A stretch of 62,904 bases of DNA, filler included, from Hausera hauseri (taxonomy: Eukaryota): NCBI GenBank assembly GCA_046269625.1. It is 11 parts of 11 records of this genome, joined end to end, with 100 filler letters (N's around TTAATTAATTAA, not from the genome) between each part and the next. Parts side by side here need not be neighbours in the genome. Positions count along the whole stretch, not along the records: positions 4,370 to 11,070 come from JBJURY010073882.1; 10 more parts are not named here. One strand, given 5' to 3'. Both the position numbers and the translations under genes were made by a program. Below the pieces are notes generated by a model that made no database searches, was not told the origin of the DNA, and was given only the letters and a program-made list of their open reading frames with translations. Every line of letters begins with the position of its first letter. Position 1 is the first letter of the stretch. Below, in pieces: positions 1,080 through 37,454 of the stretch.

Positions 1080-3635
1080 AGCAAATCAGCCCTGTATCTT
1101 CTGGGTGAGCCAAACACAGTTCTTTCTATCATTCGCCTGTCATAAAATGGTGAAACGCTTGGTCTGTTTTTTCATCATCGCCTCACCAGTGGTTTGCCAA
1201 CACGCCAGTTGTCAGCACGTGTGATAAATGAAGTTACTGCGGTTTGGAACATGGATCATATTTCTACCTGTCGCAAAGACCATGCAATCATCAAGTTGAA
1301 ACAGGTGTACAATGAATGGTCAATTTTGAATAAACACAAGACACGCTAGTCAGAGAGACATAAATCTAATGAATCCAAATTTTGTATAAAGATGAATGAC
1401 CTTTTTGATATTGCTCACGCTAATGCAGCAGAACTGGTTAAAATTTTAGAAGACTTTGAATTTCTAGCGGCACAACATGAGCCTGGTCGACGCGAATATA
1501 TGGGAGCCATTGACACACCACTGGCAGCAAAATAAGAAAGCAGAACACAGTGGAAAGAGCTGGAAAGGGCAAGGCTAGAGCGGGTAAAGACTCAGAGCCA
1601 GCTATTGCAGGCAAGGGTGGAAGCATCTACCACTTCGGCGAGTTCCTCATTGGTGGAAGAAGTCAGCAGCAGCGATGAACCTGAGTCTGAATCTGATTCC
1701 AGTGACACAGTCGAGTATGGGTCATCTACATATACTCCTCGTCATAAAAGGATGAGAGCAACAATGAAAGCCATAACACTGAGGCTAGCAGTTGCATTAG
1801 ATCTCACCAAATTAAGTGACAGGAAGGCCACCCTTGTAATCTGTGAAATGACCAAGAGCTTTGGACATGAGATAAATGATTTCATCATCAACTGTAGTAC
1901 CATCAAGCGTCAGAGAGAAAGATATAGAATGAAAATGGCAGCTGTTTTGAAATAAGGCACAGCAGGGGACATACCACTTGTGATGCATTGGGATGGAAAA
2001 CTGTTGGCAGATCTTTGTGGGAAAGAGCATGTTGATCGCCTTCCAATTATAGTTACTGGCTTTGATGTTAGTCTGCTACTGAAGATAAGCAAGATTGATA
2101 GTGGAACAGGAAAAATCAGGCATCAGCAGTAGTTCAAGCACACGATAAGTGAAACGTCAAAGATCGGGTAATTTAAATGTGCTTTGACACAACCAGTTCG
2201 AACACAGGCATCAGAAAGGGTGCAAGTACTGAAATTGAGACAATGATTAGGAGAGATCTCCTGCATCTGGAATGTTGCCACCATATAATGGAGCTAGTGG
2301 TGCTGCATTCACAACAAGCCTAGGACCCTCGTCTGCTCCAGAGATTTTGCTGCTTGAAAGATTTCAAAAACAATGGTCCTTAGTTGATTAAACCCAGTAT
2401 CATACTGGTGCAAATTTGAGTGGAATTTATAACACAGTAAATCAGGAAATAATAGTCTTTTCTCAACACCAGTTGATGCATGAATCGGTACGAGACGATT
2501 ACCATGAATTCCTTGAACTCTTAGTTATCTTATTGGGCGTTTCATCACCTAGCGGTATTCGTTTCACGACACCAGGAGCAATGCACCACACAAGATGGCT
2601 ATAAAAGGTAATCTACTAATTGAAAGTCTGGACGTTTCAGACAATTCAAAATCACAGAATTTGAAGAGAAGAGCCTATGCGGGATGTGCATATTTGCTGT
2701 TGTAGTTTATCTGAAGGCTTGGTCCATTGCATTCCTAACTGCTAGTGCTCCATTGAGTGACCTTGGCTTGCTTCAGACCCTCCACAGTTACAGACAGTAT
2801 CCACAAAGTAATTTCAAAGACAACTTGCAAGACGTTTGAGTACCACCTGTGGCACCTGTCAGAAGGTTTAGTGGGTCTTGCTTTGTGCCATCCGAGACCA
2901 AACGAAAAATGGTGGATGCCTTGCAGTCAAATCAGCCTAAACGTACATCAGCTGGTTCAAAACGAATCACTATAAAAGTTAGTGATGCATCACAGCACAG
3001 CTTGGAAGATTTTATTAGTTCAAGCAGTGGCAAACTTCTTAACAAGTTACACATTGGTTCCCATTTTCTGTGTGGACCCTGATATGTGGGTAGACAGAGA
3101 TGGCTACAACGAAGACCGAGCGAATGTCAGTAAGCTTGCTGTTACAAATGACAATGCTGAACGAGGTTTAGCACTTGTTCAAGATTTGAACACACTCCTG
3201 ACCTACGATGAGGAACAATTTCAATTCCTTCTGCAAGTTGTAGCTGATCATCAACGTCGTTACCCGGAATGTCTCAAATCTTCGCTGAAGGAGCTGTCAC
3301 ACGCTGTCGCTTACAATGACATATACACCAGTTAGACATTAGGCATTAGACACACACAACTTGTTGTAAGCAGTAATTGAATGTGTATTGTTGAACTGAT
3401 TGCTGACTGTTGACACTGTTTACTGTTCAGATTAATAAAAAGCTGCCAAAGTATCAGTTGGGGAATATGCCACAGTATTCATAGTATAGTAATAACTACT
3501 GATGTATTGAGCGACCTCTAAACATTGTCTAATTGAGGAAATATTTTGCAGACTGATTTTGCCAAAGGAACATTTTAAAATGGTGGGTGATAAGTATTTA
3601 AAAAAAATTTCCTTCCTGATATAAGGACCATCCTA
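1080..3635 (+). mobile_element. Decayed DDE DNA transposon, hAT-like (probably hATm type)
   Basis: Motifs across several frames: LFDIAHANA, HWDGKLL (first D), CFDTTSSNTG (second D), LECCHH (CxxH), VTNDNAERGLAL (E). 3' end GGACCATCCTA at 3625-3635 resembles a hATm terminus. Many stops and frameshifts. Confidence 0.75.
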
Positions 3636-4369: not shown

Positions 4370-4520
4370 AATCATATTTTATCAGTGATATTTCAGATCC
4401 TGTATCTATTAGTGCATAAACCTCCCAATCTTCCAATTGAATCTTTACGAAGGGCCTGCCTTCAATTACTGTATCATAATAGTTTGGTGCTATCTTTTGT
4501 TGTCGTATGGTAGACACTTT
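4370..4520 (-). pseudogene. Retropepsin-type aspartic protease, N-terminal part
   Basis: GRPFVKIQLEDWEVYALIDTGSEISLI (DTG active site); truncated by linker. Confidence 0.9.
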
Positions 4521-5099
4521 TGTAACCTCAGTGGTTCCAACTGGCTGCTCGACTAACTGTCTTAACTCTTTAATTGGGTATAGTGCGTTATTCGTTTCAC
4601 TCGCGTTTTCTACTGTCTGGTTTCTAACTGGCGGCTGAACATCTGAGGTTCGGAGATTTCGTGCTTCATGGTTTCGAGTAAATATCGATTGCGTTTCGTT
4701 TGGCTTAGGTATTCTGGGCCAGTAAATTACACCATGGTCGCCGACTGCTGATCTATGGTGTGGAGCCTAGGTTTTTTCTGTTTCGTGGATCTTACGCAGT
4801 ATCCCATAGCGTTTTGTTCCTTTGTAAGGATCCTCTAAACTAAACGGCTTCCGATAGATAGATTGTTTCTTGCAATCTTCATATATAGGCGCCGTTGGTG
4901 GCAATATTGGTAATGGTAGTTTCATAACGGAGTAATTTTTGTGCCTGTTTGGCCTGAAGAGGGCGTCTCCTCCCTTAGGCTCGTCATCAGCCGAATTATT
5001 TCTTCGTATCTTAGCATTAATAAATTTTTGTCTGTAGTGGAATATACCTCTGTTCCGTTTTCGATAATGGTAGCCAACATGTCGTTCTACATTTGTTTT

Positions 5100-6690
5100 C
5101 CATTTACCCTCTTCATAAGCCTTTATGAATTTGCCGAAGGGAGTAATAATAGCCGTTAAAATTTTGCATGAAAATCCTGTTAAGGTAAATATCTCATATC
5201 CGTTTATGATTGTCTGAATTATAACTTTTACCAGTTGAATTAAAAAATATATCGCTAGAAATCCTTACGCGGCTTGTCCGAATATCAGGAATCTTCCCCA
5301 AATTTTGTACAATATTTCTGTAGTTACCTTCTTATAATAGCCAACACCAAGTAATGACTCCCATTTTGCCTGGTAGCGAGAGTCCTCTAATATTGTATGC
5401 ATTGCTCTGTTTAATTCATGTGTACATTGGCTGGAAAAAGCAAGAAATTCTCTAAACGTTTCTATTTCTTTTGGTCGATAAATACCTTTTGCGGCTGTAT
5501 CTTGAAACTTATCGTCGGTTATTCCTTTTATCAGGTTTGTTCCTGTCAGCTTGGTAGGTGGTGCGATAATACCACCGTTTAGTAAACTTACCCAGTCGGT
5601 CTCGCTCCGTCTGAACATCGGCTCTCTTAAGCTAGTTTTGCAATCTCTCAAAATTGTCGGTTGAATAGCGTTTGCCAACAATACTCTGATAATCGGTGTT
5701 ACTAATCTCGATATGTCCTGATATATCACTGGGTGTTCTTGTATACATCTCTTCTCTTTCACATTAATCGGCACGTCTTTCTTCTCGCACTCATACGTCA
5801 ATAAGACTTTTCCGGTTACTCGTCCAAAAACACCTTCCTTCATCGGAATTATTGGTGATGCCAACTCGGAATTTGCATATATTAGAGCTAGTTTAGTTCT
5901 CATGATTTCCAAGTCCAATGTACAGTCGTTCCTTATCATCTTGTGATATAACTCTGTTATTCCGGCTTGTCCTTCATAGTAGAAATAGTCGTCTCTGTTT
6001 TTTAGATAATCCTCGATTCGAATGTCTTGAGCCTCCAGTTTAAACGTTCTAGTGTTTATTTCCGTCTCCGCTACAAAGAATGCCTCATAATTTGTGGCAT
6101 ACATTATGACATCGCATCTTGTGAATACATCTTTCTTCATAAACTTTAGGCCATGAGTGTCAGAAATCAGTATAGTAGGTGTGGACTGTTCTGCTACCTC
6201 TTCTCGCGTTTTAGAATTAGTTTCTGTACTACTTATATATCGTTTCCCTGTCGTTTCATTGAACTTAAGTTCTTTAATTCTGATAAAATTATTTTCCCTT
6301 GTTGCATTTCTAACTCCATGCCGTCCCACTTTATTATTCCCGTTTCTCTAGCTTTCTTACAATGTTGTCGTTCTAAATTCATCGGAATTGGTGGAGTTGT
6401 CGGTTTGATTATTGATGAGTGTCCATGTATCAGCCAACAATGAAAGATGCTGCGAGATCGTCGCAACATACATTCTACCCCATCTAGGGTAACTAGTTCG
6501 CATTGTTGATATAATATATAACTTTTATCTTTTGTTTCTAATCTGTGGGGCCTTGCATCTTCACACATTTCCAAGTCCATTAACGAATATTTTTGGCGAA
6601 GTCTGAATTTTTCACAATCATATACTGTGACTGCGCCCATTTGTTTTATCAGCATCATCATGGTCAGAAAGTTTATTAACCAATTCGATT
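5100..6690 (-). pseudogene. Chuvirus (Jingchuvirales)-type envelope glycoprotein
   Basis: Signal-like WLINFLTMMMLIKQMGA then VYDC...YSL...C; CMLRRSRSIFHC; CKKARETG; GVFGRVTGKVLLTYEC...CIQEHPV...TPIIRVL...C...PMF...W; C-terminal FLIFGQAA*GFLAIYFLIQLVKVIIQTIINGYEIFTLTGFSCKILTAI. One frameshift near 6300 and one stop at 5265-5267. Confidence 0.85.
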
Positions 6691-6721
6691 CATTTCCTCT
6701 ACGATTTCCAGTTACATTTCA

Positions 6722-9700
6722 TAGTAATTCAGCGTATATATTGCTATCGAAGGATAATCCACTCTGATGTTCTTCCTCTTTTTCGAATAATTTAGACCAG
6801 CTCACTTCTCGGGGTAGCTTCCTGGCAGCCTTCCTTGCCAAACTAATAGCCTTGATGAACTCATTTTTCCGATTCGGATTGGTTTTGAATGCTAGGTATA
6901 GCAGTACTTTTCTCACTTCCTCTATAGCATTCTCTACCATAATTTTCTCAATTATTATTTTATCACTTAAAGTGCTCTTAGTTGATTTACAGCGAAGGTT
7001 CTTCATGGCCTTTGCGGCGTTCGCTATGGCCTTCTTCTCGTCGAATATATCACTGCTTAGGCTAGAGTAGTTTATTATTCGTGTCAGATCTTTCATCAGT
7101 TCGTTCAGTTCCTCATTATCTGCGCCAACGATCGGTATGGACATCTGCCTCAATTCTCTAATCAAGTCTCCATTATAATCGATTTCATCTCGTATCTTCC
7201 GTGGCCTACCAACAGGACGTTTTTGTTTTGTTACCACGGGTATATTACCATCGATTGATACTAAATTTTTATCATACTGCTCATTATGTTCATCCGTTTG
7301 TAAATACTCAAAATACACTGCTGCATCTCGGATTCCCATTATTTGTCCTACCTGTTGTTCTGCTTTGGCCTTTCTTATAGCCTCTTCTTTTGTTTCGTCG
7401 ATAGCGGTGGTTACCACCAACCGGTTCACTTCACCTGAAATAATTCCAACTTCTATTAATAGTCTCGTCTAGTATTTTTCCTCGGAAATAAAGCTTATAG
7501 CTCAACTCATGAGCATATCCGTTGTTCTTTATCTACAGTAATACATCCTTTACTTGGGAACGCGTAGTGAACTGTTGTTCCTTCTCATCCATCCAATCTG
7601 ATGCTATTTTTAGAGGAATCGTCTCTTCCTCCTTTGCCTTTAGAATTTTGGCATATTCTTTGAGTAAAAGCCTGGATACTGTACTGAAGATCGTACCTTC
7701 AATAGCTAATTTAGTTAGAGTGGGGACTAACTGTCTTAAATGAATTTCAGTGAGATTTATTTCAATCAGCTGAGTTAAATCCTTCTAGGTTTGCGCTGGG
7801 TCCAGAAGCATTTCTACGTTGAACCTTTGTTCATGAGAATACATTTCCATTTCGCCTAAGTGTATTGGGGTTTTCGGATTTTCCGCAATCATTGCATCTA
7901 AATAGGCTTCCCAATCTGGTTCACTTTCATTGTCTGGCAGTTGATAGTTTTTCAATGGTGTATCGGTTGGCCTGCCCACCACTGTGGGCCACGTAGTTGC
8001 TTGGAGTTCTTGTAATTTCTGTTGAATCTGGACCATTTTCGTCGTTCGGAAACATCGCCCATTAGCGGACGTTTGGTGGAGCAGTGTTAACAACGAACAT
8101 AATTCTTCGGGTGAAATTAGACTCTTTTCTTCGTATTTCGTTAGTTCGGACGTTACATTTCTTAGTCATCTTTGAATGAATTGTGACTTGTCAGCTTTTT
8201 CGGCTTCTGTGAGGACGTATTTGTTTTTGTAAACTTTGAGTTCTCTATCTAGTTCGTCCAACCTTATTGCTCTCTGTTTTGTCTTAATGCAAGTTTCTTC
8301 GACTTGCTGTATCTGCTGACCAATTGCCTTAGTTTCTCGTAACTAATTTCTGCCATTTCTGCCATTAATAATGCTAATTCGTACATCTCATTAATGTTCT
8401 TTGAATCCGGATCTATCGCATTTAATAATTTTTTTACGAACTTGATCTCTTCGAATTTAAGGTGGCGGTCGTTCTTAATTTTAGTTAATTCGGTATGAAG
8501 TCTTTGATCCGTTCCATCTCTCCACTCTTGGGGACGATGTAAAAACTTAACTGCTTCTTTAACGACTGACCGGTATTCGGGACAAAAGTCCAAATTTTTA
8601 AGATCTTGCATCAAGATTTCTTCGATAAGTTTGGCTGTAACCAGTGTATTCCCTTCAGGCGGATATCTCTTAATCGTGGGTAGAAATCGCAAGTCGCGTT
8701 TCGCTTTCGCGTGAAGCTTGTTTCTTCAATCATTTTATATATATCGTTTAGCACCATCATCTCTTCTTTCTTTTCCATAAAGTTTAATTGACGTAGTGCC
8801 TCGAATTGTGTTCGGATGTCAATTTCTGCTTTCATTGTGTCTAGGTTTTGGGCGTCTTCTTCCAGCTGCTTCTTAACTGTAAGATCACTTTCTGGAAATT
8901 CCTTTTTCCGATCGGCCACTCAGCCTCGTTATTACTCCGGACCATTCTTTCAACTGGTTAGCGATTTCTGGCTTTGCCAGTATCGCTTTATTTAACATTT
9001 TGCGGGCGTCATCTAGCTCGTCATCTGGACCTCTAATAAAATCGATGATCCGGAAGGCATAGTCAAACTCATCCTTATATTCATCGAATTCGAGGATACA
9101 AGTAACAATTATTTTCTGTGTTTCATCATCAGATGGGTGCATGATCCTATTCCTTAGACTGTATATCTGCGACCACTTTTCGACTTCTATTTTAAGACGG
9201 TTTTTTAGACAAGTATATTACCTTGTCGCAGTAGAAGCGATTTTTATCATTTCCGTTAAGGGCGGAATATCTAATGCACCTATGCCCAACATCTCTAAGT
9301 CGTTTGCATCTCGTTTTTTGACCGGCTTCTTTTTTAGTTGTTCAACTATGATGAATCTAAATTCGTCTATGACGCGCTCCAAATTACGTTCTGCTCTTTT
9401 TAATTTCTGGTTGGCTTCTAATGTAGCTAATAACGACTGAGCCTGGTTGGTCCTAGTTTCAATGTTTTGGGTAGTTTTATCCCATGTCTTCTGAAATTTC
9501 GTCTTTCTTTTGATCCACCGTTCTAATTCCCGTTTCCAGTGAAGTAGGGTTTCTTTTGCCACTTCTTCTGGCTGTTCAAATCTATATCTTCACTTAGTTT
9601 CCCTTCGCTACATAGTTTCATATTTTTATATAATCTTTCTGCAAACTGCTGTTCCTTACCAGAAATATCCACTTGTTCGCTCATTGCTTTGAGCTTCTAT

Positions 9701-10400
9701 AGATTATGTCGTAATACCTCTGGGTTGCGACAATTCATCCTCATTCTTTTTTAACTCCTCTGCACTTTTCGACGAGCGTCTGATTTTCCACTTTTTAGGA
9801 TCGAGTTTCTCTTCTCGTTCTGTTTCCTCTTTGCTCGTAGATAAGGGACATACATCATTTATTTTATCTATAGATTTCATCAGCTCACCCATTTCGCTGG
9901 GCGTAACTAAATTAATTTTCGAAATGTCCAAGGCACACTCCGTTTCGCTGTCTAATGAGATTTCCGCATCTCTCTTTGTCCTTGATTTCTCTTTGATTAT
10001 TGGGAATATCGAACGATCTTTACGTTTCTGTTTCAGTGACGGGTTACGGCTTCTATTCTTGGTGGTTTTAAGTATAAGCGCTTCGAGATATTCTTCTTTT
10101 TCTTCGGCCTCTTCCTCCTTGGTTACCTTTTCTCTAGTATACTCAGGTTCTAAATCTGCCTTATCCGGAGTCTCAGGCTTCCCTGATTCGACTGGTTCTT
10201 TGTTTATCGTAGGAGCGTTCTTTTTCCGAGACATATCACTTGGCCTTGGGGGGCAATGGAACGTTCATATTCCGTTTCTGGTTCGCGCAGGCCATGGTAA
10301 ACTTCCATTAATGGTTATTTATGCTTATATTCATTTATAGCCACTAAAACTTTGGGGCCCTTAGCCTAAGGCTGGGCTTTTAAAAAACGTCGTAAATCCT
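6722..10400 (-). pseudogene. Large charged, probably helical ORF of unknown function between gag and env (fragmented)
   Basis: Chain of same-strand, nearly abutting ORFs (9704-10234, 9218-9562, 8885-9142, 8611-8919, 8264-8692, 7785-8093, 6719-7429), K/E-rich, with AT-hook-like KRPVGRPRK at ~7196-7225. Confidence 0.65.
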
Positions 10401-10416
10401 GTATCTCGATAACCAT

Positions 10417-11070
10417 TCATGTGTCTCTACGAACACCGTAAATTGCTTCTAAATTTTCGTTTTTAATTACATTGGTTTTACTAGGTTCCACAAACGAGAC
10501 ACTTCGCGTATTCGGACAGGACCTCGCTATGTGTCCTTCTTGTCCACATGTGAAACAGACTAAATTGCCATTTCTTACAACTCTTTGTCGGCTATCTTCG
10601 TTTAATGTAGATTTTGATCTACTCGGATTTCTATTGTAACCTTGCTGCGGTGGAGTCTGTCTAGGGTCTCCATATTGGCGATTATCATAACTCCGGTTGT
10701 CATTTTGTCGACTAAAAATTTTTACAGCCACCTAGGCGTTTATCTGTCTGATAATCTGATTTATTAGAAAAGCTATTTCGGCTATTATCAAAATTCTGAT
10801 TACTGTATCGATCATTTCTGTGATAATATTTACCGTTTGTGTTCCTATCTCCGTAATTATTGTTAAATCGTCTATCATTTCTATTGTTGCGATTTCTATT
10901 GCTCCGATCACCTTGATCATTATTTCTATAATTTCTATCATTGTCTCTAGTATATGTGGCCAACGCCATTTCCAAGTCTTGAGCTAATTGCATTGTCCTA
11001 TCAAAATTCTCTGGACGTGCTAGAATCAATTGCTTTACTATGTCTTTAGACCAAATTCCATTTATTAATT
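10417..11070 (-). pseudogene. Gag C-terminus with CCHC zinc knuckle
   Basis: RPENFDRTMQLAQDLE, N/R-rich linker, CFTCGQEGHIARSC; one frameshift. Confidence 0.85.
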
Positions 11071-11620: not shown

Positions 11621-11767
11621 GAATCTGTTTTCAATTACGTGTGTATCAATAGAAGTGAATATGTAAAAACATTAGCGCCCAACACGTGATAAAAATATTA
11701 CAACAGTACCTGTAAGAATGCAAAAGTATAAGTCAATAAATCAACACTCAATTTCATTTTTACAAAA

Positions 11768-12250
11768 TTGCTGAACAACATAAATTATAAAGGTTTTACT
11801 ACAGTTTCATTGGATGAATTCAAATTCCCATGTAAAGCCAAACAGTGTGTTTTACGATACCCAGAATATACTATTATATTCTTTTCCAGTGGAAAATGCC
11901 GAATAATGGGATGCAAACAACCTATTAATTCATGCAGTTTACCCTATAATATTTCCATTGTGGATATACAGTCAATTACAGTGACATCTGATTTTTGTAA
12001 ACCCATATATCTCATGGCATTGGCGAGGAATAGTCCAAATCTTTATGAACCCGAATTATTTCCTGCACTTAAATTAACTTGTTATAATCCTCTATGCGTA
12101 AATGTCTTCCATACGGGGAAAATTGTTATTACCGGTTTGAAAGATTTGAATTATAGTGATTTGGATAATTGTGTTTTAGACAATAAATTATTATCGATTT
12201 ATATTTTTCTTATTTCAAGAAGCAACATGTATGTACAACAACTTTGTTAA
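11768..12250 (+). CDS. Divergent intronless TATA-binding-protein-like gene
   Basis: Two TBP repeats: TIIFFSSGKCRIMG and IQSITVTSDFCKPIYL...YEPELFPAL...VFHTGKIVITGLK; start is TTG in the ORF track, so may be decayed. Confidence 0.8.
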   Translation: MLNNINYKGFTTVSLDEFKFPCKAKQCVLRYPEYTIIFFSSGKCRIMGCKQPINSCSLPYNISIVDIQSITVTSDFCKPIYLMALARNSPNLYEPELFPALKLTCYNPLCVNVFHTGKIVITGLKDLNYSDLDNCVLDNKLLSIYIFLISRSNMYVQQLC

Positions 12251-14374
12251 CATGACAACAATAACAGTCTGTCATTATAACACCTATACATTATCAATTC
12301 TAATCGTAACTTTCTTCTTCTTCCTCTTCTTTCTCAATAATATTGATTTCAATTTCGTTATCATCACACTCACTGTGTTGGCAATCTTCGCAACATTCCT
12401 CAAGCAATTCAGTATCTATAGTTTTATTAGTTGTATCCATGTGTTCATTATCTGCATGATCTTCTGATTGAATACATGTATATTTTGGAACATCTTCATG
12501 AAACGCAGCCACATTTGTATTTTGGAACATTCTAGAACAATTTGTTTTAATGCATCAATTTGATAAAATTGTTTTGCCCACCAAATTTGAATTCACAGTG
12601 AATCAACATATGCACATCTGAATTTACCGATTTTCGAGTAATAAATTATTCGAATATTCGACTTTTGTACAGATATTCGAAATTCTGACGTTATAATTGG
12701 ACTCCCCATACAGTATTTCTTATCTACCTACATTTAAAGATTTATCGATCTTTGCACCATTGACCTTGAAAATCACAGTTTAAGTTAATTAAAGCATACA
12801 CACATACTTGTGAATTTTGATTGTTTTTTCAGTTAATTTACTCGCTAACGATTCATCAAACGGGGCCTATTTTGCTTGTATACAAGGTTTGCGCACATGG
12901 GAAATCGAATGGGACCTAATTCTCATTCATATGCACTTAATCGCATTAAATTATCTTTAATTAGTCCAGAGATAAATCGATTTTACGTTATTACACACAA
13001 TTACAAATATCTCTACACACATACAACATTTTAGTGTGATTTTTGACTTAAATAATTGCTGTTGACTAGGGGTACGCAATAAAATGTAAAATCATTCGAA
13101 AAAACGAGTTTTATTGAAAAAATAGAAATCGATAATTTTGATTTCCATCGATAGAGGACATTTTCATACATTTGACAAACTTTATCTCACTTCAATACGA
13201 TGTATGGATGCTGAGATATAGCCATTAGAACATTTTATTCCAAATATTCGAATTGTTATCGATTCCGCTCCTAAGGTCGTATGGGTTTGTAACCTATACC
13301 ATTCGATGGAGCTCAAAAACTAAACATTTTTGACATATCAACCAACATTATTCGAAAACTTGGTAAAAAGATTTGAATTTGAAAAAATTTTTTCGAAAAA
13401 TTTGTCCCACATATACCATGTTGTATAAAATTCAAAAATACATGTTTTACTTTCTTTCGATTTTTCGAAAATTTGCACCGAATTCGAATAGTGCAGCACC
13501 TTTCGAATAGCGCAGCACACTTTCAAAGTGTTAAAATCGATGGTGTACTGTGTACTATCGATTGATTTATTGACTTTATTGATTATCGACAATGGGGTTG
13601 GAGCTCATTTCCTATTACTGATTATCAAATCGATTTTCTTTTTTGCCTAAAATGAAAAACAATAGTAAATATTATAAACAGCATAAAACGTCGGTTCAAT
13701 GTAAAGAATGAAACAAAACTGAGAAGAAAAAATAGATTTAACATTTTTTTCTACTTTGAAAATATGATGTACTAATATAATCAAAATCTGACTACGGACC
13801 AAAAGATTTATGTATTAAATTACTAAACATAACTTTGGAGCCATATTTATCAACGAATGAACATGTTCAAAAACAGACAGAAATATTTCATTGGCAGAAT
13901 GATCTCAAATATTACCCATAGTGACAACTAATTTAATGAAAAATCTCTGAATTGAAAACATAAAACAATTATTTGCATTTCATAAACAGTGTTACCTAGT
14001 GGAATAAACGTTGTTGTAATAATTTTTCATACTCACAAGAACAGGGCCGTCAGTGATAGTGAGGGTTTATTTTTATATAAACTATTTATACAAATGTTAC
14101 GTTATTTCAAACTGTTTTCTACTAAAATTTGTTTTCCATTAATTTTTAATCGCATCAATAATAGGTCTTACAAGGAAAAGAATGTAATTGTGAATCTCGA
14201 ACGTGGTCAAAGACGTATAAAATATAATACTTCACTTCTCCCCACTACGTTTAACAACTCTGAACTTTGAAAAAATTTTCTTTTTCCTTTTCGGGTTAAT
14301 ATTCATTTAATATTCCATTTATAGTGTTTTGGTGTTTTGTCAATCTAAAGTGCATTCGTCTATTTATCAATCAC

Positions 14375-14895
14375 AAAAGTTAACCGCTCTGCGAAGCCGA
14401 AAAATGTAACCCAGCGGCACAGGAGGCGGAAGAAGAAAACGGACAATGTGCAACTGGCAACACAACGCATGTTGCTGGTATACTGAAATTCTGTACAGAG
14501 TAAAGTTGATGTTTGGCAAGTCGAATGGACACGGTTTCGTCATCGTCCGACCAAGGGAACATGGGGAAAACCGGTTGGGAAAATTTCCGTAGGGTAAAAT
14601 TTTGCCATGTTCAAGTCTGCCGGTGATGGAAATGGGTCTCATACATTGACCATAAGTTGGTGAAAATTTTATATTATAACCACCTCACGATCAGACCAAC
14701 GGATCCGCGTGAAAAATGAAATCGAAAAACGCATTGTTATAAAATCAAAATCATTATCGTTGTAAATGAGTTCGTTTTTTGTAAAAATCGTGGATTTCAT
14801 TTTGCACGACGACAACGACGCTTAAAACCGAACGCACTAATTACCACGAGCTCATAATGGAGTACTACTACTCTGAAGGAGGTGGTGGTGGTGAC
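14375..14895 (+). repeat. Polinton terminal-inverted-repeat-like sequence (left)
   Basis: Reverse-complement homology to 20025-20525 (shared GGGAACATGGGGAAAA, GATCAGACCAA.GGATCC, TTACCACGAGCTCATAAT.GAGTACTACTACT, GGTGGTGGTGGTGA); adjoins the protease and capsid genes; outer boundary approximate. Confidence 0.7.
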
Positions 14896-15054
14896 TCCTG
14901 AGATCGTCTGCCTACAAACGAATCATGAGTAACACCACCAAATGTGTAACAGAGATATTGAAGTCATATAACAATAGCAACAGCAATATAACAAGTTGTA
15001 CATTTAAAAATCACAAAAACAGTCTATCTGTCCATTCAAAAAAGCGAAATACGT

Positions 15055-15432
15055 TCACAATAATGTCTGTAATATAAGCCACAATAGGCAGTAATGTCCA
15101 CGCAATACGGTAAGTGGATGTTGATAATGAAGTCGATTATATTCAACACGATGATATGATTGTCTTTCAATTTGAGAAACAAACGATGACGGGTAATAAA
15201 ACCGGAGCGGATCGAATACCTTGACGACGGTGGGATGTACGTACACCGCAATCCAATGTTCGCCCGGTAACGATGAACTGTGTGTATTGGCGATGAAACC
15301 TCCGCCACTATTTTGTCGTAAGTCACGCGGCACACGGTCCAGTGGAAATACACCACGGAATTTTACACCCAAGAGTAGTTTTCCATAGTGACTGAATTCA
15401 GTTGAGCTAAACGTAAAACGTGATTTAATCAT
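15055..15432 (-). pseudogene. Polinton adenain-like cysteine protease
   Basis: FRGVFPLD, FIANTHSSSLPGEHWIAV (catalytic H), VFDP, YQHPLTVLRGHYC (catalytic Cys of CGxYC replaced by R). Confidence 0.88.
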
Positions 15433-15485
15433 AATAATAATAATGGTAATAAATTACTTCATAATACAAAGAAGAAGGTTTTATT

Positions 15486-16122
15486 TATACTATGACGGTT
15501 CCGTTTTTCGTTATTTCCACCTCGGCATCAAATACACCGTAAATTTACAGCGCGGTAAATTGCTCCAACGCTTTAGCAAAGTGAACCTACAGTCGCAAGT
15601 TTCCCTGCTGAGGTAGTTGAGTCTGTTTAACGTCATAATCCGCAGCCAGGACAAATGTGAAGAATGGATAGGTGGACTTGAACAAATCCATCGATATTCC
15701 GTTAATGACATTTTTGTTCAACAAACCCATGTTGCGGTCAATAGATTGCATATATGTGCAAACATAATCATTAGACTCAAAGTCTTGTTTGTACGTCTCA
15801 ACGAAATCCTCATTCTTGCCCAAACTGATGTAATTCACATTGCTATGGGTAAACGTTTCCGAACTGGTGATATAACCGCCCGTTTGTTGAGCAGTATTTA
15901 AAATGTAATAATCACAAATTTCGGCAATCACATGTGGCCAAACAGTGCATTTTTGTAAAACGTAGTTGAAATTTTGGGTATGGTGTAAAACAGAAGTTCT
16001 GTGCCTTGTAATGGGTAACAGGCATCTTGTGTTTCTAAGCCAAATCGATGTCCCATGAGCACAGATGGTTCCACCTTTACACGACGTACGTATAATCGTG
16101 CCTCGGTAATTTTCAGTATGGG
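15486..16122 (-). pseudogene. Polinton major capsid protein, C-terminal part
   Basis: ARLYVRRVKVEPSV...YP; FFTFVL; GNLRL*VHFAKAL...IYGVFDAEVEITKNGTV, the typical C-terminus of Polinton PY/hexon; stops present. Confidence 0.8.
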
Positions 16123-26769: not shown

Positions 26770-27395
26770 CCATTTGTTGCATATATTGTTCGATTCTGGC
26801 CTTATGTTCTGCGTATTCGTTTAACTTCCTGCGATTTTCTCCTATTTCTCTGTTTGATACGTTAATCGCCGAAATGCTTCGCTCTAAGACATGTTTCATC
26901 ACTTCTATATTCCCATTAATCATGAGGATACTATGCTTCACATTTTGAATTTCCGAACAGTGTGTCGAGTATCTCGCCTATAAATGGTACGATCGCTCGT
27001 TTTTCTCTTCTTTTACTGATCCATTTTAGCCTTTCCTTGTTGCTTTGAATTTCACCTTGCCATTATTTAAATTCATTCTCTGCTTCGATTATTATTCTTT
27101 GGAAGTACGTTGCGTTGACTAAGTTCTCATTTCGTTGGCTGTTGTATAGTAACGTTCTCGCTTTCATTAACTGTTTCTCTACGTTTCTTATGTGTTCTTG
27201 GAAGGTTGTTAGGGATTGTATGATAACTAGCTTCCAGTGGGCTTTTACTTGCTGTATTTCTTTAACCTTCATAAATACAGTACCTTGACTTTGGAAGATG
27301 TCTTCCTTAGCTTGCGTCCTGACGACGATCATGCAGTTTGTGATGCCTATCAACTGATAGGCTTCCATCGTTTCTGTGGAGGTATATGTTCTCAA
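26770..27395 (-). pseudogene. Class I (baculovirus-F/errantivirus-like) envelope, N-terminal part
   Basis: Signal-like YQLIGITNCMIVVRTQA; GTVFMKV...HWKLVI; furin site plus fusion peptide RREKR|AIVPFIGEILDTLFG at ~26950-27012; heptad region after it. Confidence 0.8.
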
Positions 27396-28599
27396 TATTA
27401 TTACTTCACGTTTAATACTTGTATCAACAATTTCATAAAATTTTCCGCCTTTTCTTCCCCTTGGTTTATTTCCGTAACTTCATTCGTTTTCCTTTTGCTT
27501 TGCGTTTCAACTTCTGTTATCGTTTTTGGTCTACGTATATCTCGATTCTTATATGCTTTGGCAGCAGTTTGCTTTTTCGTTCCTTCTGGGTCGTCTCCTT
27601 TGCTGACTATTTCGGCTAGCTGTTTCCTTAGCTTGGTTATTGTTTCTGTTTTCTCTGCATTTGTGCCTTCAAGTTCCGTCGAATGGTTTCTCATTTCTCG
27701 TATCGTTTCTTCTTTTTTCTCGCATCTTAGTTTGAAGTTCAGTTACTTCTGCTTCTACTTTTCTTTTGGTTTCGGTTAATTTTTCAACAATATCTCGTTT
27801 GTCTTTCATTTCCTTATCCCTCTTACCTACCATTATGCGTGTTTCTTCTATACTTGCTTCTACTCGTGGTCTTTCTCTTTCTTGTTTCTTCCTAACTTCT
27901 TCTGCTCTCTTCCGGTATTTGCTTCGTAAAGCTGCTTTCCTTTTTATTTTCCTCAGCAGTTCGTCTTCTGTAGACGTACTTGAATCTCATAATCTTCGAA
28001 CCATCTGATTCATTTCAGACACTTATGTTTCTGTATCGTCGACTAGTGTGTTGGAGCTGCTATTGTCCGCTTCATCTTCTTGTAGTGGTTCGCTTTGTGT
28101 TTCTTCATTGGTTCTTTCTTCTTCCTGTGCTAGTCTTCTTTCTCTGTCTTGGAGTCGTCGTTTCCTTTCTAGTAGCAGGAGGTCACTATCTTTGGATGAA
28201 CTGCTTAACATCGTTCTCCATCGCTTCAATTGTTGTGCTCTCGCTTCTTCAAATCTTTGTCTGGCTGTGGCGCGTGTGTTTTGATATGGTGCTGTGGCAT
28301 CTGTTTCTACCCTCTGTTTTTGTTGATGTTCTCGTTGGTAGCGATAGTGCGATTTCGTATCTCCTGTCACTTTTTTCTTCTGACATTTCTTCACTGCTGG
28401 TACTCTCTTCTGTTGATGTTTCAGTGCTACTTTCGTCTTTCAGTGGTACCACATATCGTGACTTCCTTATTTTGTTCTTAAGCTCAGATTTTGGTTCTTT
28501 GAACAATTTGCTATCGTCTTTCCGTAATTGACTTGTCGTAACTGTAGCCTCATGGTTTTCTTTTTGGTTGACTATCACGTACGTCGTCGGACCTCTTTT

Positions 28600-29560
28600 T
28601 TCGATTATCCGATATCCGGGTAGCCAATTATTTTCTAATTTGGAGCTTTTCCTGTGCTTCCTATAGTAGACCCTATCTCCGATTTCGAAGTCCTGTTGAA
28701 CTGTTTTTGGGTCACTGTACTATTTTCTTTCTGGAAGGCTGTTTTCAAATTCCTGCTGACTTTTACTGTAATTTCATGCAGCTTTTGCAACAAGCATCTG
28801 TGCAATTCTTCGCCCTGGTATCGAAGCCTTAGTTTGAGTAAATTGTCAATAGGTAGCGTCGGCTCTCTGCCAAACAGCATTTCATATGGGGAGAATTTTC
28901 TGCTCCCATTCTCCATCACTCGAATCACCATTGCAGCTTGACTTAAATATAGATCCAATTCTTTCGGCTGGTCTTGGGCGTAATTAGCTATTACATCGTA
29001 TATTGTCGAGTGTTGCCTTTCATTAATACCATTGGCTCCTGGGTTATATACCGCTGTTTGCACATGTTTAATGTTTAATTCCTTCACTGTGTCACACATT
29101 GCCTTGTTAATAAATTCTCTCCCGTTATCGGTGATGATTATCTTCGGACATCCATATCGGGGTATGAATTTTTCTAGTGGAATATCGATTATTTTTTCTG
29201 CCGATTTGTCGGGCATGGCATATAACTCTGGCTAACCCCTATATACATCGACTATGTGTAGTATATGTTTATTACACGACGCAGTCAGCGGGTGTGGTCC
29301 TGACAAATCTAGACTTATTTTCTAAATTGGGTAGTTTGCATAGTCTGGTTGTTGAAGAGGGTGTTTCAGCACTTCCATCTTTCTTAACTTGCGGCCTTCG
29401 CAGTTCTTTACATAATTCCCGATTTCTTGTATCGTATTTTTCCAATAATATTATCGACTGATCAGTTCCATTATTCTGTCTCTGCTAAATGTCCCAGTTG
29501 ATAGTGGTACTGCAGTAATACCGTATATTTCAGCTTTTGGGGTATACATAGTTGGAAATT
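28600..29560 (-). pseudogene. Integrase (HHCC remnant, DDE core, GPY/F region)
   Basis: YHYQLGH; IPRYGCPKIIITDNGREF; TAVYNPGANGINERQH; FSPYEMLFGREP. Confidence 0.92.
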
Positions 29561-29794
29561 TCTCTTCTCTCCTCCTCCCACTCGATATAATTCTCCGTCG
29601 TCCAATATGAACTTTTTTCTCTTTTTCTGTTTTTCGGTTATCCCCGATTGTTGGTCTTCTATGATGTGTTTCAACTCTTCGTCTCGCTGTTGTTCGGCTT
29701 GTATTTCTAGTTTGTTTTCTTCTATTTCACTGCCGCCTATTTCCGATTCTTGGCTTTCATGCTGGCTCATTTTTACTGGATCGACCGCCAATAT

Positions 29795-30352
29795 TTACAT
29801 AGCATGGTCGTCTACTTCCGGCGTTCCCGCTTCTATTTCTTTTCTCTGGTCTACTTCATTGTTGCTTTTATCTGGGATGCGTGATAACAAATCTGCGATT
29901 GTGTTTTCTGGGCCTGGTATGTATTCGATGTTCATGTTATACCCTTGCAGGCTTATTATCCATGGCTGAATTCTTTTATTCTGGATGTCTGCTCTTAGCA
30001 TTGCCTTTAGCGGCATATAGTCGGTCTTGATGGTAAATTTGCTGTTGTATAGATAAAAGTTCAGTTTTTGCAAGGCGTAGTGAATTGCGTAGGCTTCCTT
30101 CTCAGTCACTGACAATTTCCTCTGGGATTTCGTTAACCTATGAGATAAGAAATATATCGGTTTCTCTCCAGGTACTTCTTTGCCTTTGATGATTTCTCTG
30201 CCGTCTTCTTGAGCTAATATGGCTCCTACGGCGTATTCGGATGCGTCCGTGTACAAAAATATTCCTTGTTGACGTTTGGGTAGGTCAACAGTGGTACTAT
30301 AGTCAAGCTTTCCTGCAGATATTCGAAGGCTTTTTGACAGTTTTCCTCCCAT
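29795..30352 (-). pseudogene. RNase H
   Basis: LYTDASEYAVGAILAQ; SVTEKEAYAI; FTIKTDYMPL; NTIADLLSR. Confidence 0.92.
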
Positions 30353-31318
30353 CGGAACCTTGCGAATTTTCCCGTTAACGCCACTAACGGTTCTGCTATT
30401 ACCGAGAAGTTGGGAATGAATCTACGGTAATACCCGCACGTTCCCAGGAATCTTCTAACTTCCTTCAGCGTTTTTGGTGCTGCCATCGATCGTATCGCTA
30501 TCACCTTTTCTTTGTCTAGCTGCACCCCTTGTCTGTTGATTATGAATCCTAGGTATTTCCTTTCTTCTTTTAAAAATTCGCACTTACTTAGTTTGAGTTT
30601 TACGTTATGTTCTCTCAGTATGTCAAACACCTTCTCTACATGTTCTAAGTGATCTTCGACGTCTTCCTTTGTAAAGATCAAGATGTCATCTATGTAGGCG
30701 AGCGCGTACTGTTGCATGCCTTCTAAAACTATATTCATTAGTGACATATAGGTCGCTGGGGATCCTTTCAACCCGAACGGCATGACGTTCCAGGCATACA
30801 CTCCAGTATGCGTGCAGAACGCACTCTTCATCTTCGCGTCTGGTGACATCGGAATACACCAGAATCCGGACCTCGCATCTAATGTGGTGAAGTAAGTGGT
30901 CAAGTCTAGCACTCCTAGGATGTCATCGATTAAGGGCATCGGGTAACTTATATTAGCTGTTATAGCGTTTAGTGCCCTATAGTTGACACAAAATCTATGA
31001 CTTCCGTCTTTTTTTGTTAAAGACAACTATCGGCGATGACCATTCTGATCTGGTCCTTTCGATTATCCCAGCCTGCAGCATGTCTTTCTCCACGATTTCT
31101 CGGTTCCCGAGCGGCGTTCGGTATGGCTTTAGACTAATCGGTGTGTGGTTGGTGGTGTCAATACTCATTGCGACCATCTGCGTTCTTCCCAATTCCATTT
31201 CCGATAGTGCAAATACGTCTGGGTGTTTCCTAACAAACTTCTCTATTCTTTCTCTGTGTGTTGGTTCTACTTTTATTGTTTCTAGTAGTTTCCTGGTTCT
31301 TTCATCATCCCTTGTCAC
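30226..31318 (-). pseudogene. Reverse transcriptase (Ty3/gypsy)
   Basis: KPYRTP; SEWSSPIV; RFCVNYRALN; LDARSGFW; MPFGL; YIDD; RRFLGTCGYYRRFI. Confidence 0.95.
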
Positions 31319-31372
31319 TTCCGGTATCGTTTTGGCTTTGGTTCCATTTCCACACTCAATCTCTGATTTCTT

Positions 31373-32125
31373 TTAACACTTTGTCTCTGGGTGTTCTTCT
31401 TTGTTTCTCCCTTCTGCTTCTACACTTATTCGTGTTTCTAGTTTCTTTTCTCTTCGGTTTCTTCTCGTGTTTCTAGTGATTGTTTCACATTTCGTCATCT
31501 GCGGCTTCTCTACTTTCGCTATAATACAACCTTTTTGCAAGGTGATTGTCTTTCCAGTGTGATTCGCCACCATTACCGGTATTTCTTTTCTCCTGTTTAA
31601 CCTCACTAATCCGCATATAGTTTGTAGTCCGGGTTCATCAATTATGTCTTTTTCTTCTAACATTGTTATCAGTATGCTCTCCCCTTCTTCCCAATATTGG
31701 TTTCCCTTCATTGCAGCTATCACTATGTTCAACGAATTCGGTTTCATAGTAATTTTTTGCTTTAACCGTATAATTGAGGCTATATGGATGTCATCTTCTA
31801 GGTCTACATATTCATCTTCTATCCTTATCTTTTTCATGTCAAAATAAATATGGGCATTGTTCTTTTTCAAAAAGTCTCTACCTATAATTGTGCTCCGGCA
31901 CATGTTTTTGATTAGCAAGAAATGGTGTCTCATCGTTTTCTTGCCAATCCTAAACTCTAACTGTGTTTTCCCTAGTACTTTCAATTCGCTCCCTGATACC
32001 GATCTTAGGTTGATGTCCTGTCTCACTAGTCTGCTTGGTTTTCTCGGCATTTTATATACCCTTTTGCTTATGATGCTCACTTGTGCGCCTGTGTCTATGA
32101 GACATCTCGCTCTGATATGATGCAC
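31373..32125 (-). pseudogene. Aspartic protease followed by degenerate dUTPase-like spacer
   Basis: CLIDTGAQVSII...IIGRDFL; then IPVMVANHTGKTITLQKGCIIAKV. Confidence 0.9.
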
Positions 32126-32854
32126 GAGCTTGGGTTCTCTGTGTAGTTGATTTCGTATCTTTTCCTTGATTTCTCCCTTACTTTGTTGTTGTCGTTTCCG
32201 TTTCTAGTTGATGTTCATGGTTGTTTCCCTATTGTGGCTGTTTCTTTCCGTCGTTTGGGACAGTGTCGTTGTTCTTTGGCTTTTGGTGTGTGGGTGTTAA
32301 CTTCGTTCTTGTGTTCGGGAATGGGGTGGACTTGCTTTTGGGGTTTGGGCTTTGGTTCTTTTACTACATATCTCTTTTTCTTGGCTTCGTCTATTTCCAT
32401 TGGTACTGGTTCTTGTTTTTGCTGCTGGCTGTTGTTCCGATTTCGGTGTTGCTGCGTATATTGGTTAATCGTTCTTCTTACGTTTTGCTGATATTCTTGT
32501 TTGGTTCTCAACCAGTGCCTATCATTTCTTGTGCTCGAGTTTCGTTTAATCGTTTTTCTATCTTCTCGTTTCGAAATTTGTTCTATATCTATCTTGGTTC
32601 GTAATTTTTCTTCGGCCGCTTCGTTGCCAAATTCTTGTTCTAGGATTTATTTAACTTGGGTTTCTTTTTCTTATAAATCGTGTTTCGTATCTAGTTCTTT
32701 TTCTCGGTGGTGTGGTGTTCGTTCTTATATCTTTTCCGACTATACTGTCTTGTGTTAGGTTGTCGAGTCCTTACCGTTCTCCTGCTTTGTGTGTAGTCTC
32801 GTTTTCCGTTTCTACTGTTGGTTGCTTCCTTTTGCTCCCTGCTATGTCGGACGC

Positions 32855-33617
32855 TCAGTTCAAAGCAGGGTTTCCGTTTCCCTGTTGTGTCTGATTTCTG
32901 CTGTTTCTTCGCTCATGTGTTTCACTTGACCTGCACACTCTGGCAAAGTGCCCTTCTTTGCCGCTTTTATAGAACTTTCTCCCATCTCCTACGTTCGGTC
33001 TAGTGGCGATCGGCTCTACTGGTTTGCTTCTGCATTCCCTTGCTATGTGATTCACTCTGCCGCACTTGAAGCACTGTATTCTCCTTTCTACTTCCTATCT
33101 TCAAAACTTCTTCCACTATACTTTTCGTGTTCGTGGAACTTTCTGTGCCATCTTGGTCTGTACTGGTCTACCTCCATTTGTTCTTCTCCCTTGTCGTCGT
33201 ATTTTTCTCTACCTAAACTCATGTTTACTCGGTTACTGAAGTTCTCTTCTTCCACTGCCGTTTGAATGGCTGCCTGTATTGTTTTTGGCTCGTCTTTCAT
33301 TAACTTGATCTTGATTCTTGTGTTTCTCAGCCCATCTGTAAATACCGGGATTAACAGCTTTCCTATCTCCTCTGTCATAATATTCTGTCCGGCATATGCC
33401 TCTTCTGCCATGTTTAGCATCCGGGGCTGTAGAGTTGTACCGCTTCTTCTCGCTCTTGTTTGATCTTTCTAAGTGCTGTCACAGCATAGTGCATGTCGCT
33501 GACTTTAGCGTATCTATTGGCCAGTGTTTTCTTAAACTCGTCCCATGTTTCTTCTGGGTGGGAACTAAATTTTGTCGAGGAATGGCTGCTTTGTAAACTA
33601 CTGGTTGCAACAAACAA
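32855..33617 (-). pseudogene. Gag with two CCHC-type knuckles
   Basis: WDEFKKTLANRY; KIKQEREEAVQLY; FTDGLRN; QMEVD; CFKCGRVNHIAREC and degenerate FYKSGKEGHFARVC. Confidence 0.88.
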
Positions 33618-34137
33618 TAGTCTGCGATATACAACACGCTCAATCTAGTCCTTCTTGTCTCGAACTATAGCCGTCTAATATTTCGCTTCGCCACGTTGGT
33701 TCTACACAAATGCCGTGTATCTAATATTTTACTTTCAATGTATCCTGTTAATCGTGTGGTCGTTTGGCCAATCGCCGATATTTAATGACTCACACACCCA
33801 AGGTTCATAACTGCTGTATAGATCATACTAATTCCGTTAAGGTTCATTGTCACTTTGTTCAACTAAGTACTTAATCCGACACACTACTTACTGTTTATAC
33901 GACCGTCACCTCCAAATAGCGCTGATGCCGGTGTTCCTAGGTGGCTTTGGTGGCTCCAACCGCCGAAAGACGTTGTATAGCTTCTGTTCGTTGGCACACA
34001 TGAACGTACTTCGATAATCTGCTCACTTCTCACACACGTTGGTTATACTCTACGATGTCAGCCCGGAAAGTGGACTCACGACGCTGCTATCTACGTAGAT
34101 ACAACCGTAAACTCAATCAACCTTGAGACTGATTATC

Positions 34138-34292
34138 GACGGACACACAGTCCCATAATTCGACGGACACACAGTCCCATTATACGTTGATTCTCATTTA
34201 CGTTTTGACAAAATCTTCACAGTTCAGCTGATTTTAACTCAGTGGTATCGGCGGACACACAGTCCCATTTAACGACGGACACACAGTCCCAT
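34138..34292. repeat. Four copies of 19-bp GACGGACACACAGTCCCAT in the retroelement leader
   Basis: Copies at 34138-34156, 34162-34180, 34250-34268 (1 mismatch), 34274-34292. Confidence 0.9.
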
Positions 34293-36171
34293 TTACCACT
34301 ATATCGAGGAATGCGTTTTACCAAGGCCAAACGGCTGAGCAGGCTGGTTAATAAATGCTGCTCACAACGGTCAAGATGCTGTGCCTCGAGCGAGCAAACG
34401 TTCCTGACTTCTTACCGTCACAAATGTTGCGGTTGCTAGGACTGCCTTGCTTATATAGCCTTTCGTTGCTATTCCGCGACGTTCTCCTTCGTTCTCTGAC
34501 GTTCTTGTGCTTCGGTTGTTGCTACACAAGCAACGTTCCTTGTTCTTTAACCAATCAGATTTATTTCCTGTCGAATGTTCCAATAATTCTTGCTTTCCTG
34601 TTTAGGACGTAATTTTCGATCTCCTTCTTCCCGTTTCTCGAACGCGCCATATTTTGCGTTCGCACAATTTGCGTTACACAACTTTGCGTTCANNNNNNNN
34701 NNNNNNNNNNNNNNNNNNNNNNNNNNNNNNNNNNNNTTAATTAATTAANNNNNNNNNNNNNNNNNNNNNNNNNNNNNNNNNNNNNNNNNNNNTGAAGCTA
34801 CTGAAAGTGAGTACAATTCTGGGTGTTTACTCTTGTGTATTGCTGCTAATATTTAAGGCCAAAAACCTTAATTCTGTGCTGACATGTGGTTGTTGTGTAG
34901 GATCAGATTTTCTTGTAACTATGCAACACACAACATGCAGTGAAGTGAGTTATAATCCTGATGTTTGTTTTATTGATTACAAATACATAAATGAAAGTTA
35001 ATGTTTTCATTGTGTATGAGATAAGCATTTTTTATCAGCCAGACATGAATATATAAATGCGATTAATAAAAGCGAATAAAAGATGCATAGCCTTTTACCA
35101 TGAAAGTGATTACCACAGATTTTATCTGAAGTATTTTAATTTCACAGTTGGAAATACACTGATATTAGAATTTTCTACACTTTGCATTAACTACTTTTCT
35201 GCATGAATAATTATGATGAAGTGAATCTTAAAATGGAAAGAAATATTATAGAAAAAAATACAGATATGTGTTTGTTAGACAACCAGTGATATAAGACACA
35301 TATACATTTTTTCAACAAAAGAAAACTGAAGGAGCGTGTAGTTACTGAGAGGCTACAGGAACATTTGAAACACTTCAGAAGTATGTTTTAACAGTTAAAT
35401 GTCTTCTTTATTGTTTGACCTCCAGTTTGACCTCTATTATTACGCACGACCAACTTAAATTCAAAGATTTACGTTAAAGCCCAGTAAAACATATTTGAGA
35501 AATATCCCTCCCATAGAAATCATATCTATAGAATGTATACAAATATACAGCTATACGTTGGACATACAACATTTGTGGTCGTTCCTTATAAAATGTATGT
35601 TTCCTATTGTTATTGCATTAAAAAAGTTGGTTGCGCTGCATGTGGCCCACGGGCCGTGTTTTCCCCAGATTCTGCTATGCAGCATGCCAAATGTACACAC
35701 ACTGTTCTATCAAACATTCCTCCGGCTGCCTGGAACCACTATTCAGTACAATCAGAAGAGGTCTTCTATTACATGGCGCATAGGCTCCATTTGAATTTAT
35801 TTGTATAGATAAGAAAACGAAATCGATTTCCGGAGCAAATCTATGGCTTACATCGCGTCATACTACATCAATGGTATGCCAATTGTTTCCTTAATAAGAT
35901 TCTTATTTAGAGACGATCTCATCATTATGAGCATGTAGCGTGAGTTTTGTAGAACGTCGCACTCATAACATCCCGCCCAAACAACTGTCCCATACTCGCC
36001 TTTCTGGAATATTCATGTTCAGAGTTTCTTTGATGTCTTGTGTCCATCGTCTTCTTTGTCTTTCTGCTAATATTACGATAACACACAAATATAATATGCA
36101 TTACCAATATTACAATTGTTTTCTAAAAGGGAATTTAACTAAAACATCAGAGATTATTCACTCTGACTAAA

Positions 36172-37275: not shown

Positions 37276-37454
37276 GCTGTGGGAAGGGTGTGGAATGATT
37301 GAAGTTACCTGATGTAATAAAATTGTCTTGTTCCGTGGTAAGATGGTGTGATGATATCTTTAAAGAACAAACTGTCTTCTAGACACTGGTTTCCTGTTCC
37401 GTGGTAAGATAACCAGATGATATGTTTGATACAAAAAATCAGATTTATAAGTTG

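Follow-up and report, generated by a model that had tools for sequence, protein, structure and literature searches.

The closest described counterparts of the locus reported here are the planarian Burro / GYPSM1 elements, giant gypsy-like long terminal repeat (LTR) retrotransposons attributed to Jurka 2007 and Grohme 2018 in PMC6431247. According to that description, Burro has one open reading frame (ORF) of 4873-5140 aa ordered as Gag, CCHC knuckles, Smc, MATH or MDN1-like, Ubi2/SUMO-like, BCL2, and an envelope glycoprotein (Env) encoded in frame before the aspartic protease (PR). Another described group comprises the GAG-ENV-POL elements with a gB-type glycoprotein reported in nematodes, bryozoans, and flatworms (Chary and Hayashi, eLife, PMC13524379). 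Here, we analysed a 62,904-nt stretch of Hausera hauseri DNA (the window), composed of approximately 11 short contigs joined end to end with N spacers around TTAATTAATTAA; contigs on either side of a spacer are not linked to each other. One of them carries a long coding region, termed X, between gag and env. We consider it highly probable that X, now decayed, is an accessory segment from a Burro-like Ty3/gypsy element with multiple copies, the working ones of which likely encoded one Gag-X-Env-PR-RT-RH-IN polyprotein (RT, reverse transcriptase; RH, ribonuclease H; IN, integrase).

The Pfam matches on the minus strand of this contig follow the order zf-CCHC, PF24664, and RVP, corresponding to gag, a gB/chuvirus-type env, and pol. 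Its main features are:

4370-11070, minus strand: contig of 6.7 kb, in the order gag, X, env, PR, all on one strand
10420..11070, minus strand: C-terminal part of gag (PF00098, E 6.4e-8), cut by the contig end
~10510-10560, minus strand: single CCHC zinc knuckle, CX2CX4HX4C, within the gag part
6722..10416, minus strand: X, accessory coding region of ~1230 codons, decayed and interrupted by a minimum of seven stops and seven frame switches
6719..6721, minus strand: in-frame stop at the X-env junction, absent from the other copies aligned
6632..6682, minus strand: stretch that likely serves as an internal signal for env (15-residue hydropathy peak of 1.29)
5118..6631, minus strand: gB/chuvirus-type (Monjiviricetes) fusion glycoprotein (PF24664 on three pieces, E 7e-10, 4.5e-22, and 8e-8)
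4370..5117, minus strand: end of env, a linker, and the first part of the aspartic protease (DTGS; PF00077, E 0.03), in the env frame

As in Burro, a Gag with a CCHC knuckle is followed by a long accessory region that includes a Ubi2/SUMO-like domain and a possible coiled-coil-like stretch, and a mononegavirus-type env stands in frame before PR; decayed fragments have likewise been reported for Burro in Dugesia japonica (PMC6431247). In contrast, BCL2 was not detected in the corresponding slot, MATH, BIR, and ankyrin were not seen within the 6.7-kb contig, a single knuckle is present instead of two to three, and an AT-hook is not named in the Burro description (PMC6431247). A strictly defined Burro exceeds 30 kb, carries BIR and ankyrin cargo, and resides in a planarian host, whereas the window contig spans 6.7 kb. 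As for env within one ORF, X-env and env-PR are in frame with unshared stops, while gag-X continuity is seen in part. The locus is judged to be a decayed member of the Burro-like GAG-ENV-POL Ty3/gypsy elements, of a type that works like Burro. It is filed as Burro-like and not as Burro in the strict sense, given the failure to detect BCL2 and given that size, LTRs, RT, and host lie beyond what the contig shows. The gag-X-env layout has already been published for flatworm Burro elements, and the finding is largely ordinary.

Nematode endogenous retroviruses are reportedly another case of env before pol (Sacco et al. 2022) and are said to be nematode-restricted; their likeness to the window, env ahead of pol, is by description only. 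The errantiviruses with an HSV/gB-type env carry a gB-type env between gag and pol, and six Schmidtea rows among them (Platyhelminthes_C1a) share short motifs, by eye, with the env of the window and of its relatives (PMC13524379). These are intact elements, in contrast to the decayed window copy, and the gag-env spacer is not annotated in that account; across its seven supplements, 'ubiquitin' and 'apoptosis' returned 0 matches and the sole 'bcl' match was an assembly name. Troyka was rejected as a candidate, being defined by a CX2CX8-10HX4C knuckle and no env (PMC12440569), whereas the window has CX2CX4HX4C and an env.

X as a decayed open reading frame in a multi-copy family

X is a real, coding-derived but decayed ORF, since the cheapest minus-strand path through 6722-10416 required 14 breaks (seven stops and seven frame switches) versus 26 on the plus strand and a mean of 44.5 (minimum 34) in 100 dinucleotide shuffles. 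The TGA at 6719-6721, which closes a 249-codon stop-free stretch (6722-7468), was confirmed to be in frame with the protein text quoted in the initial annotation and with the Monjiviricetes-type fusion glycoprotein (PF24664). The same annotation would explain this stop by a single CGA-to-TGA change; X as a whole, however, is not one frame with a single interruption but needs at least 14 breaks. Its description of a K/E-rich region agreed with our counts (K+E 22% in 1080 residues of the X pieces versus 16% in the env piece), as did the stated lack of PR, RT, and IN motifs: the three minus frames of X contained no PR, RT, IN, or CCHC motif, and a Pfam scan of X gave no match to these families.

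Decay extends along the contig. The gag part has a frame switch near 10720, and the PR start at 4370..5117 has one stop at 4769 and is cut by the contig end; RT is absent from the sequence of this copy because the contig ends inside PR. Env switches frame near 6349, is interrupted by a stop at 5267, and has lost approximately 85-100 codons internally relative to seven of the seven relatives measured, the landmark-to-landmark span being 147 codons versus 230-250 in all seven. With X decayed and env bearing these three lesions, the copy is dead and unable to work. Elsewhere in the window, a decayed sister fragment at 57836-59640 (minus strand) consists of an env tail, linker, PR, and RT start; it shares 68% nucleotide identity over 699 bases with 4378-5045 and is 31% identical to P0004 (E 2e-12).

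Two public runs, X1 and X2, contain copies of the family, and both were compared as contigs only; no RNA run was listed as containing it. Contigs aligned at 80% or more numbered 13,514 and 1,199, respectively, figures that do not represent copy number, and these contigs indicate that the element is multi-copy in the host genome. Other copies covered 30/30 bins in both runs, so X is present in them; its absence would have refuted the initial annotation. The other refuting outcome, conservation of the TGA at 6719-6721 across copies, was not found either: 779/795 depth units in X1 (25 contigs, 98%) and 3.13/3.13 in X2 (1 contig) differed within the stop codon. One contig per run spans 6630-6800, bridging X and env, with no indel or joint listed there in either run. 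Three further stops (4769, 9699, and 10317) were unshared among the 40 rows listed of 1547, the gag-frame stop at 10317 by 3571/3571, and by our reading of the 12 indel rows listed of 26, such rows of other copies fall at six of the seven frame switches in X. Variable places within 6630-6800 showed a third-position bias (14/26, p 0.025), which was not used as a sign of selection on X because the X side contributed only 6/13.

Env relatives and polyprotein layout

When the env piece was searched with phmmer against 1.84 billion representatives, 210 matches were obtained, 28 of them at E 1e-10 or better, and the closest relatives were 27-34% identical to the env of the window. A tree of 24 env pieces placed the window with 15 relatives in a 16-row branch (100/100), outside of which fell eight more distant glycoproteins. 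Both the top phmmer matches and the tree group this env with the env of GAG-ENV-POL elements. Among 18 relatives scanned with Pfam, those ranking highest are polyproteins in which env precedes PR, RT, RH, and IN, several of them starting with a Gag knuckle. A metagenome scan recovered four loci. For example, L001 is one 3426-aa ORF comprising a ubiquitin-like segment, a Bcl-2-like segment, env, PR, RT, RH, and IN, while L003 is one 2693-aa ORF running from Gag to IN. L002 has a 999-aa Gag-X ORF, an in-frame TGA (3058-3060) just before the env signal, and beyond it a frame that stays open as far as the contig end. This TGA, a lesion or a read-through site, sits almost where the window has its stop.

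The large X-Env-PR-RT polyprotein proposed initially stands in that X-env and env-PR are continuous and that X, Env, PR, and RT were seen in one ORF in relatives; its start is revised, as the polyprotein likely begins at Gag and not at X. The spacer between gag and env is variable in length, because the distance from knuckle to env is 221-711 residues in the seven relatives measured versus about 1300 codons in the window, and in P0016, env is preceded by at least 1365 residues. Several tandem aspartic-protease domains follow env in P0151, L001, P0006, and P0004, and P0151 (4844 aa) also has ankyrin and C2H2 matches, as in Burro. In P0018, residues ~110-290 before env have, by eye, the look of what we take to be a DEDDh-type exonuclease, a possible further cargo that gave no Pfam match at E 0.01.

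Modules of X and the slot before env

Within X, the following features were distinguished:

9034..9702, minus strand: charged helical, coiled-coil-like stretch (crude heptad scan only)
8990..9340, minus strand: possible, weak second ubiquitin-like domain (relatives' profile)
7412..7778, minus strand: ubiquitin/SUMO-like domain preceded by a helical lead-in; one stop and one frame switch interrupt the segment
7187..7222, minus strand: AT-hook-like motif (PF02178, E 0.16, below the cut-off)
6773..7183, minus strand: helical segment in the slot of the relatives' Bcl-2-like domain, with no Bcl-2 match by sequence tests

A helix-plus-ubiquitin-like profile was built from four relatives, with the window left out. 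Among 66 frames, window positions 7548-7778 ranked first (E 0.001), and with the letter X placed at the breaks the profile scored 20.3 bits over positions 5-129 of 134, a value reached by 0/986 shuffles. In relative L002, the corresponding domain gave a weak Pfam ubiquitin match (E 0.005), and its part of the predicted model had a predicted local distance difference test (pLDDT) score of 80-90, matching SUMO1 and other ubiquitin-like domains in Foldseek (E 2e-5) and ISG15 with a VIA Z of 12.5 (root-mean-square deviation 1.6, 76 aligned). Thus, a Ubi2/SUMO-like domain upstream of env was found by profile, its fold being seen on L002 only, and the end of X probably holds a ubiquitin-like domain. 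The initial annotation had presented X as unknown; its first 800 codons are indeed without assignment, but part of X can be placed, as its end corresponds to the ubiquitin-like module of the relatives. The matrix-like role also suggested for X found no evidence in these analyses. A second domain of this type may lie at 8990-9340, where the profile scored 9.5 bits (0/952 shuffles) in a segment chosen after the fact; the whole piece scored 5.1 bits (13/959).

The sequence KRPVGRPRK is present as initially reported, with a Pfam AT_hook score of 12.3 bits, below the 17.4 cut-off, and GRP[RK] occurs upstream of env in 4/12 relatives, many of the 12 being cut at the N-terminus. Beyond these modules, X is charged and in places heptad-like. 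The stretch at 9034..9702 is a possible counterpart of the Smc-like region of Burro; no Pfam or NCBIfam match to Smc, MATH, or MDN1-like families was found in X. Word-based homologue searches with X and with env returned nothing at longer lengths, which is weak evidence, and no relative was found in the viral-contig and genome-contig collections. Likewise, an atlas search gave no usable match for 6722-7468 (best 0.82) or for the L002 domain. Two candidates were discarded: a HEPN domain near 9160, suggested by an RNxxxH stretch and without a Pfam HEPN match, and a GPY/F-like env tail, a by-eye impression without Pfam support.

Regarding the slot directly before env, a GGW motif was found upstream of env in 4/12 relatives, with the same reservation on N-terminal truncation. 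The domain bearing it matched Pfam Bcl-2 in 3/3 relatives aligned, the window row being a miss, and a five-row profile of this domain matched Bcl-xL (E 7e-5); as judged from these profiles, the GGW-bearing domain of some relatives, just before the env signal, is Bcl-2-like. No BCL2-like domain was detected in the window slot with this profile of five rows, and a very diverged domain is possible. A single-sequence AlphaFold model of 6722-7468 had a pLDDT of 36 and was uninformative, as was its Foldseek search, in which nothing reached E 0.001. Searching with the Bcl-2-like profile recovered nothing beyond the sequences it was built from (3 matches among 7994 scored), and the fold searches with the L002 model were filled by the ubiquitin-like domain and say nothing on its Bcl-2 fold. 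The likely signal at 6632..6682 ends just before a YDC motif common to the relatives ([YF]DC), in which it occupies the same position.

Alternative explanations, proposed mechanism, and significance

Three other explanations were weighed. X could, as initially inferred, be fused to Env-Pol alone and form an accessory ORF distinct from Gag, which would end at 10419. The gag frame stops there and again at 10368, neither stop being shown as copy-specific among the 40 rows listed of 1547, and Burro elements can carry some cargo in separate accessory ORFs (PMC6431247). However, the gag-frame stop at 10317 is unshared, an indel row falls at the switch from the gag frame to X, and Gag and X share one ORF in L002, L003, P0006, P0009, P0013, and P0022, which makes a separate ORF improbable. 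Less likely still is programmed read-through at the stop preceding the env signal, which would set the ratio of Gag-X to Env-Pol. A single ORF without read-through would yield equal Gag, Env, and Pol, and L002 combines an open 999-aa Gag-X with a TGA in almost the same place; yet L002 is a single contig (P0154, one member), the junction stop is unshared in the family of the window (779/795), and L001, P0001, P0003, P0004, P0006, P0007, and P0016 have a junction without a stop. Finally, an unrelated nested element or captured host gene in this copy only, to which the lack of a homologue found for the first two-thirds of X and its greater length than in the seven relatives measured might point, can be dismissed as extremely unlikely, given that all bins are covered in both runs with contigs bridging X and env, that X holds no transposon enzyme motifs, that its end matches a module carried by relatives in the same slot, and that P0016 has a comparably placed stretch of at least 1365 residues.

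The reading of X as the accessory segment of a Burro-like polyprotein is preferred, and several observations weigh against it. LTRs, RT, and IN lie beyond the contig ends. Approximately 800 codons of X (7790-10416) had no family match in Pfam or NCBIfam and no significant tblastn match to the X of 14 relatives. The window slot scored 3.1 bits against the relatives' Bcl-2-like profile (95/991 shuffles as high), with an hhalign probability of 0.5% and a pairwise z of at most 1.25 against five relatives. The env of the window sits on a long branch (1.93), and its position within the clade is not settled. The run contigs are of unstated kind, and one run may be the source sample. Lastly, the stops at 10419 (gag) and 10368 are not among the 40 rows listed of 1547, for which reason the gag-X continuity in the family of the window is inferred from relatives.

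The mechanism proposed for working copies draws on established polyprotein biology and on the relatives. A single Gag-X-Env-Pol product would be translated, its putative internal signal being the hydrophobic stretch ahead of the YDC motif. Cleavage by signal peptidase would release the Env ectodomain into the lumen of the endoplasmic reticulum, with the Env anchor bringing PR-Pol back into the cytosol, and the element's protease would then separate Gag, X, and Pol. X would stay cytosolic, perhaps membrane-tethered via the signal remnant, as modular host-directed cargo and not as a matrix protein; this cargo would comprise a coiled-coil spacer, one or two ubiquitin/SUMO-like domains, the AT-hook, and a helical domain in the Bcl-2-like slot.

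Other contigs of the window carry further elements and a host gene. A second decayed gypsy element at 26770-34692 (minus strand) shows, by eye, PR, RT, RH, and IN, followed by a further ORF without a Pfam match. The region 11732-16120 contains a TBP-like ORF (PF00352, E 1e-14); the ORFs beside it, which gave no Pfam match, have by eye the look of what are presumably an adenain protease and a capsid, suggesting a polinton/adintovirus-like fragment. ORF pieces at 43903-45154 (minus strand) resemble a family B DNA polymerase by eye, with no Pfam match at E 0.01. An intronless 395-codon rhodopsin-family G-protein-coupled receptor at 36175-37359 (minus strand; PF00001, E 6e-7) is an animal host gene, and we presume that it resembles orphan receptors that are expanded in gastropods and other lophotrochozoans.

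The locus is of modest significance, enlarging the Burro-like elements by a divergent, very abundant family; a dead copy offers no direct handle on function. The ubiquitin-like and AT-hook end of the spacer is common to relatives with an env only ~30% identical, and the content of the rest of the spacer varies. It is conceivable, if rather doubtful, that the family represents a distant Burro-like lineage in which the Bcl-2 cargo was swapped for a different helical domain, with ~800 undescribed accessory codons, a second ubiquitin-like domain, and possibly a non-planarian host; if so, the gag-env spacer would be a freely exchanged cargo bay for host-manipulating domains. Cargo in Burro-like elements can matter, as exemplified by Burro1, whose IAP-like cargo reportedly confers protection on planarian stem cells (Lee et al. 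2026, cited in PMC13465017).

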